18,918 nt of DNA, from positions 1 through 18,918 of IMG/VR virus record IMGVR_UViG_2698536485_000019. The stretch is one strand, 5' to 3'. The first letter of the stretch is position 1. Each line of letters opens with the position of its first letter. The notes under the pieces were generated by a model. The model saw only the letters and a list, made by a program, of their open reading frames with translations, made no database searches and was not told where the DNA came from. Below are positions 3,674 to 13,253 of this stretch, piece by piece. Origin of the DNA: a virus (lineage: Duplodnaviria > Heunggongvirae > Uroviricota > Caudoviricetes). The position numbers and the translations under genes are program-made.

Positions 3674-6063
3674 ACGTCAGCCCCTTGTGCATATCGTCTG
3701 CCACGCGCAGCAGGTGCATTTGATGCTGTGCAAATCTGTCTGGCTTCATCCTGGTCACATGCAACAAAGTGTCCGTTACAGAACCGCTGGTAAACCGTAC
3801 CAAGTGAGCCAAAACGGTTTTTCGTCACGATGATTTCAGCAAATGGCGCGGCGCTACTGTTCTCGTCATATACCGCTTCCCGATAGAGCATGATGATTGA
3901 GTCTGCGTCCTGTTCAATGCTTCCTGAATCACGCAAATCTGCGTTTGTCGGGCGTTTATTTGGTCGCTTCTCAACATCGCGCGAAAGCTGACTTAGGGAG
4001 ATAACTGGCGTTTTCAGGTCTTTCGCCATCGCCTTCAGGCTTCCGGAGATGTGAGCAATTGCGAGGTCGTTGCGGTCTGCTTTCGGCTTCTCAATCAGGC
4101 CAAGATAATCCGCCATGATGAGTGAGAGGTTTGGATTTTCCTGTTTGTGCCGTTCTGCGATTGAGCGTATTTCTTCGACCGATAACCGCGAGGCATCGAC
4201 TACCCATACATCCAAATCTGCAAGCTGACTCATGCCGTTAGCAACACGTGCCCAGCCTTCGTCATCCATCGATGCAGGATTTCGCAGTACGCTAACCGAC
4301 ATCCTCCCGGCGTTGGCAATGCTTCGCTCTGCAATCTGCAATGCGCTCATTTCCATTGAGAAAATCAATACCCCGCGCCGGACGTCAGAACCAGGAATAA
4401 CACGACTTGCAACGCCTTCGGCAATCTTCAGCGCCAGTTCCGTATTGTGCGTAACGATGTAATCCGTTGTCACATAGAGATGGCTAGGATGGCTTACCAT
4501 GATGCAGAGACACTCTTCTGGCTCAACAACTTCAACCGATTTGATACCCACACCAACGTCGCCAAGCCTGTTAATCCCGAGATTTTTGCGTAAACGTGGT
4601 GAGTGAATTTGCTCTATCAAAGATGATGGCAACTTCATGCTGACCATGTGTGCATCAAGTCCGTCGTGCTTCTCTCCTTTGTACGTGTAAACTATTCCCG
4701 TCCTGCTGGATTCTTTGGCGGTTCCACCTAAAGATCTAACAAGCCTTACTAATCCTTTAGCTAATTTCTGACTGGATGAACTAAAGCGGATGCATCCGGA
4801 CTTCTCAACCCAGCCATCTGTCTCGAGAAGGCCAGTTAAAACACCGGTACGTATTTCTTTGCTAGCACTAAAAATTTCTGCTGGGATTTCCTTCTCGGAC
4901 GCACCTTTCCCGATCACCCCAATGCCACGTAGTTTGTCCAATAGTGGGTTCTTCTGGCCTTTTTGGTTGCTTATCAAATAATCATTCTCTCCTACCTTAA
5001 CCAGTCGCAATGGTGCAATTGCATCACTCATGCGGCTCAGGACATATTCTTCCGAGTTGGTGAATTTGATGCCTTTTATCAACGAACCGTCACCAAGTAG
5101 AGCCCCAATAACCCAACCATCAAGGGGAATATTTTTACCAAAGTCTCCGGTCAAGGATGGCACTCTTATTCTTCCCTGATAACGTGTTTTTTGTAGCATC
5201 CCAGCCAGCGCATCAGTATCAACAACGCGTTTACCAGTAAATCTTGATGATGAAATTTCCCATAAGTGGTTGTCGGCACATTTCACGCTACGTCCGTCTT
5301 CAAAGGTGACTAAATATGTGAATTTCTTCCCTTGTGGGAAGACGCCAATTACCTCCGAAGGAAGCCCGTCTATTGACGCGATGCGATCGCCAATTTTGAC
5401 TTCTCCGTGAGTAGTCCAGGTGCCATCTGCAAGTAAAATCCCTTCGCTTAGCGCCATTGCTTTCCCCATACCAGGACGAGCAGCGATTATCACCAGGTCT
5501 TCTGCGTTCATCCCTCCGGTGATGGCGTCAAGTTCTTCGATTCCGGTCTTCAGGGTATCTGACTCTTCTCCGTTCCTCAGACGCCTGTCAAGCGTGTCAG
5601 TGTAGTCAGTGATGATTTCCCCTAACCGTACAGGTTTAACCTCGTCACGGGGCTTTCTGATGGCTGAGAGACGTTTTACAAGTTCATCCATCGCCTGACT
5701 CGATGCGTCGATGGTTCCGCTTTGGATTGGTTCACGCATTTCATCCATGATTTCCAGCACCAGACGGCGGTGATAGTTATCCGCGACCATTCCGGCATAT
5801 CCCTTCAGGTTTGCGGCACTCGGGCAGTTTTTGCTGGTCATCAGGATTGACGTGAAATGCTCCTCTCCGCACGCCTCGGCAACCATCAGCGCGTCGATTA
5901 GGTTTCTGTTTCGCGCCTGCTTACGGATAACCTCGAAGGCTTTCCGGTAGAGCGGAATTGAAAACGCCTCCGGCTCCAGCGTTGCCAGAACGTCGCTGGC
6001 AGTTGGCGTTAATCCACCAATCAGCAGGCCACCGATAACGCTCGCTTCGATATCCTGTCTCAT
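3670..6063 (-). CDS. DnaB-family replicative helicase (P22 gp12-like) interrupted by an intein
   Basis: 797-aa ORF. N-terminal domain with ...[18 protein letters not shown]..., Walker A AARPGMGK then a ~339-aa insertion, resuming [10 protein letters not shown]... with typical DnaB C-terminal motifs. Start overlaps the O-like gene stop (ATGA). Confidence 0.85.
4444..5460 (-). mobile_element. Intein with LAGLIDADG homing-endonuclease domain inserted at the helicase P-loop (GMGK | T)
   Basis: Helicase residues 202-540. Begins [14 protein letters not shown] (Ala, not Cys/Ser), block B ...[19 protein letters not shown]-like motifs [13 protein letters not shown] and [11 protein letters not shown], block [20 protein letters not shown], block G YIVTHN followed by +1 Thr, which restores GK-T of Walker A after excision. 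Confidence 0.75.
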
Positions 6064-7979: not shown

Positions 7980-8630
7980 ATGAATACACAACTGATGGGT
8001 GAGCGTATTCGCGCTCGCAGAAAAGAACTCAAGATTAGGCAGGCTGCCCTTGGCAAGATGGTTGGCGTGTCTAATGTTGCTATTTCCCAATGGGAGCGAT
8101 CTGAAACTGAGCCCAATGGCGAAAACCTATTGGCCTTAGCCAAGGCTTTGCAGTGCTCCCCTGATTACCTGTTGAAAGGAGAGGATAGTCTTTCAAACAT
8201 TGCCTATCACAGCAGGCATGATCCAAGAGGTTCGTATCCTCTAATTAGTTGGGTAAGCGCAGGATGTTGGATGGAAGCTGTAGAGCCATATCATAGGCGT
8301 GCAATAGATAACTGGTACGACACAACGGTAGATTGTTCTGAAGACTCTTTTTGGCTCGACGTTAAAGGTGATTCAATGACTGCCCCGGCAGGACTGAGTA
8401 TTCCTGAAGGGATGATTATTCTCGTCGACCCAGAAGTCGAACCACGTAATGGAAAGCTGGTAGTCGCCAAACTTGAAGGAGAAAACGAGGCGACATTCAA
8501 AAAGTTAGTTATTGATGCCGGTAGAAAATTCCTGAAACCACTCAATCCACAATACCCAATGATTGAAATCAATGGGAACTGTAAAATCATTGGCGTTGTC
8601 GTTGATGCCAAGCTAGCAAACCTTCCTTAA
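7980..8630 (+). CDS. cI: Prophage repressor CI (P22 c2-type, HTH + S24 LexA-like autopeptidase domain)
   Basis: 216-aa translation MNTQLMGERIRARRKELKIRQAALGKMVGVSNVAISQWERSETEPNGENLL... with C-terminal S24 motifs (GDSM, KLVVAKL); matches P22 C2 as I recall it. Confidence 0.9.
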   Translation: MNTQLMGERIRARRKELKIRQAALGKMVGVSNVAISQWERSETEPNGENLLALAKALQCSPDYLLKGEDSLSNIAYHSRHDPRGSYPLISWVSAGCWMEAVEPYHRRAIDNWYDTTVDCSEDSFWLDVKGDSMTAPAGLSIPEGMIILVDPEVEPRNGKLVVAKLEGENEATFKKLVIDAGRKFLKPLNPQYPMIEINGNCKIIGVVVDAKLANLP

Positions 8631-8944: not shown

Positions 8945-9250
8945 ATGGTAACCATTGTCTGGAAAGAATCCAAAGGTACGGCAAAAAGCCGCTACAAAGC
9001 TCGCAGAGCAGAACTTATTGCCGAGCGACGCAGTAATGAAGCACTGGCGCGAAAAATTGCGCTAAAGCTCTCTGGTTGCGTCAGAGCAGACAAAGCAGCA
9101 TCACTAGGAAGCCTTTGCTGCAAGAAGAAAGAAGAAGTTGTTCGAAAAAATAGAAGTATTTATTACAAGGATTCAAACCCATTAGGAAACAAAATACATG
9201 CAGTCCAAAAAATAAAATTGTACAGTAAACTACCGTACGGTGCTTATTGA
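8945..9250 (+). CDS. N: Antiterminator N (phage-21-type arginine-rich motif) with a divergent AT-rich 3' end
   Basis: ATG at 8945 after AAGGAG; MVTIVWKESKGTAKSRYKARRAELIAERR... matches the phage 21 N ARM as I recall it; located between nutL and the pL-operon accessory genes. Confidence 0.75.
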   Translation: MVTIVWKESKGTAKSRYKARRAELIAERRSNEALARKIALKLSGCVRADKAASLGSLCCKKKEEVVRKNRSIYYKDSNPLGNKIHAVQKIKLYSKLPYGAY

Positions 9251-9252
9251 GT

Positions 9253-9591
9253 ATGCTTATGGTGAAAAAGACTATTTATGTTAATCCTGACCGCGGACAA
9301 AACAGAAAAGTATCTGATAGAGGTCTTACATCTCGAGACAGGAGGAGAATAGCGAGATGGGAAAAGAGGATAGCATATGCATTAAAAAACGGTGTAACAC
9401 CTGGATTTAATGCTATAGATGACGGTCCTGAATATAAGATTAATGAAGACCCAATGGACAAAGTTGACAAAGCATTAGCAACACCATTTCCTCGCGATGT
9501 CGAAAAAATTGAAGATGAAAAATATGAGGATGTAATGCACAGAGTTGTTAATCACGCTCACCAACGAAATCCAAATAAAAAATGGTCATAG
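9253..9591 (+). CDS. Hypothetical protein (basic N-terminal half, acidic C-terminal half); accessory moron
   Basis: ORF in an AT-rich segment; first ATG 3 nt after the N stop (start uncertain, no clear SD); followed by its own terminator. No family recognised. Confidence 0.45.
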   Translation: MLMVKKTIYVNPDRGQNRKVSDRGLTSRDRRRIARWEKRIAYALKNGVTPGFNAIDDGPEYKINEDPMDKVDKALATPFPRDVEKIEDEKYEDVMHRVVNHAHQRNPNKKWS

Positions 9592-9727: not shown

Positions 9728-10351
9728 ATGTCATCAATCCGCTTAACTACGAGAATGAAAGAGGAAATCGCTCGTAACGCTTTAATTAAGTCCGGGGTGT
9801 TCACTGAACTTGAAGAAGTAACAAAGTTAAAGAACCAGCTTGCACTTGACGCCAGAGTTATTGCGTTTGGCGGTAAAAAGAAAACTGAGGAAGTGGATCA
9901 GTTATCATCCAAGTTGGTAGCTATAAGTGAAGAACTTGGAAAGATGGGATGTTCATTTTACTCATACGATGTTAGTTCTACTTCAATTTATCTGACTGTA
10001 TCTGGCAGAAGGGTTGGATGGCATTCATATGGGGAAGACGGCAACGGCAAAGATATATTGCTCCCTACTCCGATCAAAGATAAATGCATGTTTGACGCAG
10101 AACACGAAATAACAAAAAGGTTTGATGAAATCTGCGCATTGCAACAAAAACTTGAAGCCAAGAAAAAGGATATCGAATCAAATGTATGGGCTGCTTTGAA
10201 CTCAGTCACAACAGTTAAGCGACTTATTGAAGTTTGGCCTGAAAGCAAAGAATTGCTACCAAAAGAAGCAGATAAAGCAAGTACAGCACTTCCTGCTTTA
10301 CGGGTAGAAGATTTGAATAAGATGATTGGACTTCCTTCCGAGGCCGCATAG
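9728..10351 (+). CDS. Hypothetical soluble protein, 207 aa (accessory gene in the N-cIII slot)
   Basis: ATG at 9728 with GAGAGG RBS at 9715-9720; coherent ORF with no hydrophobic segments; own terminator at the stop. No family recognised. Confidence 0.6.
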   Translation: MSSIRLTTRMKEEIARNALIKSGVFTELEEVTKLKNQLALDARVIAFGGKKKTEEVDQLSSKLVAISEELGKMGCSFYSYDVSSTSIYLTVSGRRVGWHSYGEDGNGKDILLPTPIKDKCMFDAEHEITKRFDEICALQQKLEAKKKDIESNVWAALNSVTTVKRLIEVWPESKELLPKEADKASTALPALRVEDLNKMIGLPSEAA

Positions 10352-10366
10352 TCGGCCTTTATTTTT
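10341..10366 (+). terminator. Rho-independent terminator
   Basis: aggccg-catagt-cggcct followed by ttattttt, overlapping the stop codon of the 9728-10351 ORF. Confidence 0.6.
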
Positions 10367-10485
10367 GGCATAAACAACAGAATAAATACTGCACTGTGTA
10401 TTCATTCCAACGAGTGAATACACGGAGCAATGTCGCTCGTAACTAAACAGGAGCCGACTTGTTCTGATTATTGGAAATCTTCTTT

Positions 10486-10512
10486 GCCCTCCAATGTGAG
10501 GGCGATTTTTTA
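10486..10512 (+). terminator. Rho-independent terminator within the noncoding gap upstream of ea10
   Basis: gccctc-caatgt-gagggc followed by gatttttta. Confidence 0.6.
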
Positions 10513-10531
10513 TCTGTGAGGATATGAACAG

Positions 10532-10900
10532 ATGTCAAACATCAAAAAATACATCATTGATTACGACTGGAAAGCATCAATAGAAATTGAAATCGACCAT
10601 GACGTAATGACAGAGGAAAAACTTCACCAGATTAATAATTTCTGGTCAGACTCTGAACACCGACTCAATAAACACGGCTCTGTATTAAATGCTGTATTAA
10701 TCATGCTGGCGCAACATGCTCTGCTTATAGCAATTTCAAGCGACTTAAATGCATATGGTGTTGTGTGTGAGTTCGACTGGAATGATGGAAATGGTCAGGA
10801 AGGATGGCCTCCAATGGATGGTAGCGAAGGAATAAGAATTACCGATATCGATACATCAGGAATATTTGATTCAGATGATATGACTATCAAAGCCGCCTGA
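10532..10900 (+). CDS. Ea10-like protein (lambda ea10/ssb position), function unknown
   Basis: 122-aa ORF immediately upstream of cIII, the position and length of lambda ea10 as I recall; sequence identity not verified. Confidence 0.55.
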   Translation: MSNIKKYIIDYDWKASIEIEIDHDVMTEEKLHQINNFWSDSEHRLNKHGSVLNAVLIMLAQHALLIAISSDLNAYGVVCEFDWNDGNGQEGWPPMDGSEGIRITDIDTSGIFDSDDMTIKAA

Positions 10901-10972
10901 GCGCGGCGTTACCGCATACCAATAACGCTTCACTCGAGGCGTTTTTCGTTATGTATAAATAAGGAGCACACC

Positions 10973-11113
10973 ATGCAATATGCCATTGCAGGGTGGCCTG
11001 TTGCTGGCTGCCCTTCCGAATCTTTACTTGAGCGAATCACCCGTAAATTACGTGACGGATGGAAACGCCTTATCGACATACTTAATCAGCCAGGAGTTCC
11101 AAAAAATGGATAA
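10973..11113 (+). CDS. cIII: CIII (inhibitor of FtsH-mediated CII degradation)
   Basis: 46-aa ORF (below the six-frame track cutoff) after AAGGAG: MQYAIAGWPVAGCPSESLLERITRKLRDGWKRLIDILNQPGVPKNG, near-identical to lambda CIII as I recall it. Confidence 0.8.
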   Translation: MQYAIAGWPVAGCPSESLLERITRKLRDGWKRLIDILNQPGVPKNG

Positions 11114-12665: not shown

Positions 12666-13253
12666 ATGAGCAACGTAATTTTTACTTATAACGAAGAAGC
12701 AGCACTGACCGCAGGGCAAGGTGGTTTTATTAACGAAACTGGCGCTCACATAATTACCATTACTGAAGCAGAACTCAAGCAATCAGAAAAAGGAGCCAAA
12801 TTTATTGAGTTTTCTGGAGAATCCGACGACGGACGTAAAATCCAGTATCTTAGCGTCTGTGTTCAGAAAAATGACGGCACGGAAAACAAATTTGGCGCAA
12901 ATGTCGTTCACGCCATGATGGGGTGTGCCGGGATTGGACAATTAACGCAACATATGGTTTCCGCCAGTAAATTTGTTGCACCTGAATTTCATGGAAAGAA
13001 AATCGGGTTAGTGCTCCAGAAAGTATTAACCACAAACAAAAAGACTGGCGCAGACAGCTACCAGATGGAAATACGCATCCCGTTTATTGCACAAACAGGT
13101 CAAACCCTTAAAGAAAAGGCAGAAGGCAAGCAACCAGAAACTATCGCCAACATGGTTGCCAGCCTCAAAGATAAAGACAATCGCTCTAAAAACGTAAGCC
13201 ATAATCATGCAGATGATTATGGTTACAGCCAGAACGATTACCCTCCTTTCTGA
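12666..13253 (+). CDS. SSB-like protein (probable partner of Sak4) with acidic C-terminal tail
   Basis: 195-aa ORF ending ...HADDYGYSQNDYPPF, reminiscent of the SSB C-terminal tail ...DDDIPF; adjacent to the Sak4-like gene. Confidence 0.5.
   Translation: MSNVIFTYNEEAALTAGQGGFINETGAHIITITEAELKQSEKGAKFIEFSGESDDGRKIQYLSVCVQKNDGTENKFGANVVHAMMGCAGIGQLTQHMVSASKFVAPEFHGKKIGLVLQKVLTTNKKTGADSYQMEIRIPFIAQTGQTLKEKAEGKQPETIANMVASLKDKDNRSKNVSHNHADDYGYSQNDYPPF

Follow-up and report, generated by a model that had tools for sequence, protein, structure and literature searches.

What does the stretch between a 207-aa gene and ea10 of this lambdoid phage encode, and what purpose is served by the 12-bp hairpin within it? 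The window, the whole stretch of DNA analysed here, comprises 18,918 nucleotides (IMG/VR record IMGVR_UViG_2698536485_000019), and its + strand runs in the direction of a lambdoid pL operon. An S24/HTH repressor (7980-8630), an N-like ORF (9247-9591), the 207-aa gene (9728-10351), the gap, ea10 (Pfam DUF2528, 10532-10900) and cIII (10973-11113) follow one another, all on the + strand, an order that puts the gap where the lambda small RNA PreS is found. The 207-aa product, encoded in the ral position, matches Nmad5 (Pfam, E = 2.7e-71), the nucleotide modification associated domain 5, and the Lambda cIII thermoregulator element (Rfam RF01804, 88.5 bits; 10960-11018, +) spans the cIII start. Two intrinsic terminators had been predicted here, and the terminator scan finds both. 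The first belongs to the 207-aa gene (10340-10366, +), its stem (10340-10359, followed by a T-run) overlapping the stop codon at 10349-10351; the second lies just ahead of ea10 and is discussed below. A further terminator reported between ea10 and cIII (10924-10943) is probably tL2b.

Judged by its sequence, the gap is the ral-ea10 intergenic module of the early leftward (pL) operon of lambda. It is 98% identical to that region, with similarity beginning at about 10354-10358; the left arm of the 10340-10359 terminator is missing in lambda. The interval is common to more than 300 annotated lambdoid phages and is 100% identical in Stx2a phages, and well-annotated phage records mark nothing in it but a terminator. 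Folding of 10360-10515 gives -50 kcal/mol (z = -5.9), a value that none of 200 shuffles equals. No Rfam family matches the gap at the gathering score, the best permissive E values of 0.45-0.66 being spurious, and the P22-type loci described below match no family either; rliE, RyhB and P14, which surfaced at E of about 0.5 for the gap and the P22-type loci, were rejected as noise. PreS is absent from Rfam 15. Elsewhere in the window, Rfam matches to isrK (75.5 bits), C4 antisense RNA (66.7 bits) and the a1/b1 targets (50.5 bits) at 1081-1279 on the - strand reveal a P1/P7-type c4-ant immunity RNA module within a lambdoid phage.

The sequence of positions 10425-10512 (+) is almost certainly that of PreS (LPR1). 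Over these 88 nt, 87 bases are identical to lambda complement(33924..34011), the lone difference being a terminator loop base, A here and G in lambda. Exact matches to primers that Silverman et al. used for cloning, in vitro transcription and probing fall at 10425, 10441 and 10452, and their two Northern probes match exactly too. The cloned 5' end, GAGCAATGTCGCTCGTAACT, matches at 10425, although this published end derives from cloning primers and band sizes and may be a few bases off, and the 3' primer corresponds to positions ending at 10512, with one mismatch to the window, in the terminator loop. The small RNA suspected in the gap is therefore already known, as PreS with tL2a, and its detection here is a rediscovery: the original prediction was right about an sRNA ending at the second terminator but wrong about its architecture.

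LPR1, since renamed PreS, was located between ea10 and ral by Silverman, Nashef, Bruner, Noy and Melamed (bioRxiv 10.1101/2024.10.31.621285) and has been reviewed (PMC12197685). The lambda RNA is strongly enriched with Hfq, runs on Northern blots as a band of ~88 nt and a stronger one of ~68 nt, and ends in a stem rich in GC followed by poly-U, which the authors equate with tL2a; it belongs to the lytic cycle only, being absent in lysogens and present 10 min after induction (bioRxiv 10.1101/2024.10.31.621285). By pairing with the dnaA 3' end just upstream of dnaN, it opens the dnaN ribosome-binding site and raises DnaN; it also represses alaS, and its net effect is to favour phage DNA replication in the lytic cycle (bioRxiv 10.1101/2024.10.31.621285). 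Full phage yield needs PreS, acting through Hfq, and the phenotype of a seed deletion likewise requires Hfq; across E. coli, PreS was counted in 2,537 genomes (bioRxiv 10.1101/2024.10.31.621285). The main text of Tree et al. 2014 makes no mention of the PreS locus. EHEC prophage sRNAs of the AgvB/AsxR/HnrS type were rejected as the identity of the RNA, HnrS (EcOnc10-12) being a different RNA of 66 nt. The invariant 5' block of PreS, which is removed in the 68-nt form, holds CGCUCGUAAC (10434-10443), which we take to resemble the boxA element (CGCUCUUA) of nut sites.

Within PreS, a small stem-loop (AACAGG / CUUGUU, 10446-10463, +) lies 5' of the seed and overlaps its start; across the family 99% of its cells are paired, and two of its pairs change on both sides. 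The seed, or target-pairing region, UUGUUCUGAUUAUUGGAAAUCUUCUUUG (10459-10486, +, placed from the primer table), is identical to that of lambda, as are the mutated sites M1 (10464-10466) and M2 (10474-10476); the published seed deletion covers about 10460-10476. With M1 and M2 included, the seed is complementary to the dnaA 3' end / dnaN leader of E. coli over two blocks, CAAAGAAGA and TAATCAGAACA, separated by a middle with gaps and mismatches, and the duplex of the lambda-type seed with the E. coli dnaA 3' end has a predicted dG of -34.2 (z -4.4), with 0 of 300 shuffles as good. The minimum-energy fold also contains an 8-bp pairing of CAGAAUAA (10378-10385) with the seed start UUGUUCUG (10459-10466); the flank carrying CAGAAUAA is present only in the class comprising lambda and the window and is missing from most others, and we rejected the pairing as probably incidental. 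On the target side, the dnaA-end stretch GATTTTTCNAAYYTNATCAGAAC, with its rare AGA codon, keeps its nucleotide sequence across more than 120 species of Enterobacterales, ranging from Klebsiella to Xenorhabdus and Proteus. This conservation suggests a constraint beyond coding, possibly a structure for dnaN translation control that PreS exploits.

PreS ends at tL2a (10484-10511, +), the second of the predicted terminators, with a stem at 10484-10505, whose GC-rich part is 10486-10491 / 10498-10503, and a U-run at 10506-10511 (6 T). A GC-rich stem with a U-tail is the usual module bound by the Hfq proximal face, and from its sequence tL2a would also be the 3' Hfq-binding module of PreS. A mosaic boundary follows directly after its T-run.

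How, then, does the hairpin relate to this RNA? It occupies 10396-10423 (+), one base above the coordinates first assigned to it, and consists of the arms gtgtattcattc (10396-10407) and gagtgaatacac (10412-10423) around the loop CAAC. All 12 pairs form, one of them U·G, and read as a DNA palindrome the arms agree at 11 of 12 positions, in keeping with its description as near-perfect. On average, 0.04 hairpins of this kind (at least 12 pairs, at most one G·U, loop of 3-8) arise when the whole window is shuffled by dinucleotides, against two on the + strand and none on the - strand in the real sequence. The other, GCCATAATCATG-CAGA-TGATTATGGTT (13197-13224, +, one G·U), falls in the 3' end of the ORF at 12666-13253. 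The gap hairpin was considered as an intrinsic terminator and rejected: its stem is AU-rich and followed by GGAGCAAUG, and the terminator scan does not report it. Nor is it part of the sRNA, as the original prediction had it, since it ends one base before PreS +1 (10425) and thus outside the published mature species; the authors' full PreS deletion (Δlpr1) leaves it in place (primer table, bioRxiv 10.1101/2024.10.31.621285). The word "hairpin" is absent from the preprint, which does not address biogenesis or the origin of the 5' end (bioRxiv 10.1101/2024.10.31.621285). Folds and alignment further point to a conserved "foot", GCAC (10391-10394, +), invariant or nearly so in each of the 40 representatives despite belonging neither to the mature sRNA nor to the ORFs upstream. 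In the predicted folds, three foot bases can find partners in PreS (G91 at +4, C92 at +3 and C94 at +1), with +2 in an A·A mismatch, so that the stem extends to 10390-10429 and the hairpin reaches into the first bases of PreS.

The hairpin had been expected to be conserved among related phages, and it is, as a structure. Our comparison drew on 120 IMG/VR loci with the PreS seed, 120 with a Salmonella-type 5' block, and a panel of annotated phages; as the loci were gathered with PreS sequence as bait, finding the PreS 5' block conserved is in part circular. The conserved feet GAAUAAGCAC(Y) and (N)GAGCAAU enclose, in one and the same register, at least five stem sequences that are unrelated to each other, namely the lambda type (GUGUAUUCAUUC/GAGUGAAUACAC), the type of P22, ST64T and mEp043 (UAUAGCAGAUU/AGUCUGCUAUG), that of BTP1 and epsilon34 (UAAUGACCAUU/AGUGGUCAUUG), that of S107 (UAAUGCGGA/UCCGCAUUG) and a fifth (UUAUCGACUUUC/GAGAGUCGAUAG), and the loops are hypervariable across types. 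In a 40-sequence alignment, 9 of the 12 helix pairs change on both sides and 97.9% of cells are paired, a covariation that rests on five stem lineages, and so on a few events passed down to many sequences. Hairpin, foot and seed-proximal stem were scored together, without the terminator, whose types align in registers that differ; this combined structure has a covariation score of 0.532, compared with 0.172 in shuffles (none of 500 reach 0.532), and sliding the partner leaves only 25-45% of cells paired. G·U pairs make up 59 of 469 cells and hold only for the transcribed (+) strand: if the other strand or DNA is read instead, the paired share falls from 97.9% to 85.3%. There is very little doubt that the hairpin is a selected RNA structure.

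The structure also travels with PreS. The invariant core is 10391-10511, embedded within at least eight unrelated left flanks, which join at or just before the foot GCAC, and several right flanks (ea10, the cIII leader, gene 17 and others), which begin right after the T-run. Lambda-type hairpins are followed by PreS in 129 of 130 cases; in the lone exception (L379) the hairpin is intact and a clean deletion from PreS +9 joins +8 to the cIII leader. Conversely, HK022 has lost the left arm of the hairpin to IS903 and keeps PreS intact. In mEp213 there are two N genes and two PreS copies (~2590-2713 and ~3990-4110), the first with a P22-type hairpin and a degenerate-looking terminator, the second with a lambda-type hairpin. 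The linkage and the mosaic structure speak against a function bound to one particular gene upstream.

A divergent PreS homologue occupies the same operon position in P22, ST64T, BTP1, epsilon34, S107 and many IMG/VR contigs. It shares the 5' block GAGCAAUAUCGCUCGUAAC and the covarying small stem 5' of the seed, and has a variant seed, CGUUCUGGUUAAUCGAAAAAUC, an extra small hairpin and different terminators; hairpin, body and terminator types recombine freely among the relatives. These homologues would not be found by the BLAST criterion of the preprint, at least 92% identity (bioRxiv 10.1101/2024.10.31.621285). The dnaA-dnaN junction reads GATTTTTCAAATTTAATCAGAACATTGTCATCG in E. coli and GATTTTTCGAATTTAATCAGAACATTGTCGTCG in Salmonella, and over ~45 nt the body of the ST64T type is the antisense of the Salmonella dnaA 3' end, with 36 of 39 ungapped positions matching, both Salmonella-specific bases among them. 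Its predicted pairing has a dG of -50.6 (z -7.3) with Salmonella and a weaker -40.5 with E. coli. From the Salmonella-type seed we had predicted that Salmonella dnaA uses TCG (Ser), which is correct, and ACG (Thr), which is wrong, the codon being ACA. On these sequence comparisons, the Salmonella relatives support dnaN-leader targeting as a conserved function, and an origin of the sRNA by antisense capture of the host dnaA-dnaN junction may be considered, as a hypothesis only. With rather less than even confidence, we further suggest that the hairpin and its GC.C foot act as an obligatory, structure-only 5'-end signal, and that PreS belongs to a wider modular lambdoid/P22-like family whose bodies track their own host's dnaA 3' end / dnaN leader. 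The structure-only signal, the modular family and the antisense capture appear in neither the preprint (bioRxiv 10.1101/2024.10.31.621285) nor the review (PMC12197685).

How might the 5' end of PreS arise? A promoter scan finds nothing on the + strand between 8748 and 11500, and the appearance of PreS only after prophage induction fits transcription from pL. We propose the following model. PreS would have no promoter of its own and would be cut from the pL read-through transcript, the hairpin and foot presenting the -1/+1 junction to an endonuclease. As E. coli is not known to have a 5'-to-3' exonuclease, an endonucleolytic cut at this junction would be required. The cut would create the PreS 5' end and leave the upstream message with a 3' hairpin cap; the 88-nt PreS is itself trimmed to ~68 nt. 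All hairpin types share one junction geometry: beyond the last stem base at -2 comes a single spacer base, then the +1 G paired with a foot C, a purine mismatch at +2, and +3/+4 paired with the foot GC. Pairing of the foot with PreS +1 to +4 would compete with an internal GAGC/GCUC stem of PreS, and the junction would thus sit in a helical, mismatch-flanked context. We consider it on balance probable that the pL module encodes PreS ending at tL2a, that the hairpin is selected, and that PreS is excised from the pL transcript by way of hairpin and foot; taken by itself, a role of the hairpin in forming the PreS 5' end is an even bet. A difficulty for the model lies at the PreS 3' end, since N-modified polymerase should read through tL2a.

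Which nuclease could make such a cut? RNase III would be the first candidate, by a single cut on the 3' side within a mismatch-flanked helix, as at phage T7 sites, and on this analogy we regard RNase III specifically as possible, if doubtful. The enzyme accommodates ~22 bp, and the scoring of its sites in vivo took in 11 duplex positions to either side of the cut; around the -1/+1 junction there are 12-14 rungs toward the loop and only 4-5 toward the foot. At the positions that predicted staggered cuts would enclose, the lambda type offers a U·G and a G-C pair, and types 2-5 offer a mismatch and a U·G where RNase III substrates usually have G-C-containing pairs. As a textbook substrate the hairpin fits imperfectly; a single 3'-side cut could still be made.

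It is conceivable that the hairpin serves the upstream message alone, as a barrier to 3' exonucleases or a folding insulator, while another activity, such as RNase E, sets the PreS 5' end. The ORF upstream does stop 5-6 nt before the hairpin in many classes (TAA in GAATAA), 3' hairpins are classic stabilisers, and some endonuclease cuts PreS further to ~68 nt in any case. RNase E prefers an A/U-rich context with U at +2, however, and the junctions CG/GAGC and GU/GAGC (the slash marking the junction) appear to lack that context; the hairpin, moreover, segregates with PreS through its many unrelated upstream flanks and not with an upstream gene, and its invariant foot pairs into PreS itself. We therefore judge an exclusively upstream function unlikely.

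Similar weighing applies to the terminator end. The interval could be mainly cis-regulatory, with tL2a, possibly together with the hairpin, acting as an N-sensitive attenuator of ea10, cIII, kil, gam, bet and exo and the sRNA arising as a by-product. tL2a has been described as a termination site in the early left operon of lambda, it stands 20 nt before ea10, and terminator types are swapped freely, as expected of a generic stop signal. A by-product would hardly have a strongly conserved seed whose deletion gives an Hfq-requiring phage phenotype, or one that in Salmonella phages tracks the Salmonella target, and phages without ea10 keep the unit before cIII or gene 17. An attenuator as the main function is improbable in our view, although attenuation and an sRNA role can coexist.

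The remaining readings fare worse against the same data. The original prediction favoured an autonomous sRNA gene, a sigma-70 promoter near 10365 driving a 100-150-nt transcript that contains the hairpin and ends at 10512; this layout is common among sRNA genes, the unit folds very stably, and the -35-like TTGGCA is indeed present at 10365-10370. Yet this hexamer lacks an acceptable -10 at usable spacing, the stretch where it would fall is the hypervariable right arm of the hairpin, and the TTGGCA flank is missing in most phages that keep hairpin and PreS. Coupled with published species of ~88 and ~68 nt that start after the hairpin, and with an RNA that lysogens lack and that shows up 10 min after induction, this makes an autonomous promoter-hairpin-terminator unit very improbable. 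Equally, the dyad symmetry, near-perfect over 28 bp, had raised the possibility of a DNA operator for CI, Cro or a host regulator, a reading that is now hardly credible. Five unrelated stems interchange at one position with self-complementarity kept, which a sequence-specific site would not tolerate; the phages concerned differ in their immunity regions; and the G·U pairs would be mismatches in DNA and on the other strand. That the hairpin travels with PreS, that its stems are replaced with pairing kept, and that its G·U pairs are strand-specific together exclude a sequence-specific operator. Finally, the claim that no ORF precedes ea10 is essentially true, the mechanically called 29-aa ORF at 10430-10519 (+) having next to no chance of being a small protein gene, for its ATG, preceded by GGAG at a spacing of just 2 nt, is ATA in all Salmonella-type homologues, and indels break its frame.

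What do these observations add? To what is known of PreS, a real regulatory RNA that went unnoticed in the best-studied phage until 2024 and was flagged here from raw sequence, they contribute two modest points: the covarying hairpin on its 5' flank and the homologues in Salmonella phages. The homologues in P22, ST64T, BTP1 and epsilon34 extend the PreS family to another host, and seed changes that fit the Salmonella target provide independent comparative support for dnaN as the selected target. The covarying hairpin, with its five interchangeable stems, HK022 and L379, supplies ready-made experiments on PreS biogenesis. The present phage, of Stx2a type, has an intact PreS and so presumably raises host DnaN on induction as well, which bears on the replication of Shiga-toxin phages.

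Among known systems, PreS of lambda is the closest, with the same locus between the gene in the ral position and ea10, an identical seed and the same terminator, tL2a. In lambda the upstream gene is ral, whereas here it encodes an Nmad5 domain; the present phage is a Stx2a-type lambdoid, and its PreS is known from sequence, while expression and Hfq binding were shown for lambda. The lambda terminator tL2a, first of the tL2 cluster of pL-operon terminators (reference 47 of the preprint), has the same sequence and the same position before ea10, with no difference of substance, and is now understood as the 3' module of an sRNA. VpdS of vibriophage VP882 is likewise an Hfq-dependent, lytic-cycle sRNA of a temperate phage that acts on host mRNAs, but its sequence, host and targets are unrelated (bioRxiv 10.1101/2024.10.31.621285). 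Small RNAs processed by RNase III exist, ManS (PMC11745405) and CJnc190 (PMC8687705) among them, and they resemble the route proposed for PreS in having no promoter of their own, an endonucleolytic 5' end and a helix beside the cut. They differ in that RNase III acts there, and the helix at PreS is shorter than in usual RNase III substrates. DicF of the Qin prophage is an sRNA cut out of a longer prophage transcript, an excision like that envisaged for PreS. In the early region of phage T7, RNase III sites of the R1.1 type consist of an intercistronic hairpin cut on its 3' side within a mismatch-flanked helix, and the upstream product keeps a 3' hairpin; although the lower stem at PreS has just 3-4 pairs, these sites resemble the predicted PreS cut in both its 3'-side position and the hairpin-capped upstream product it would leave.
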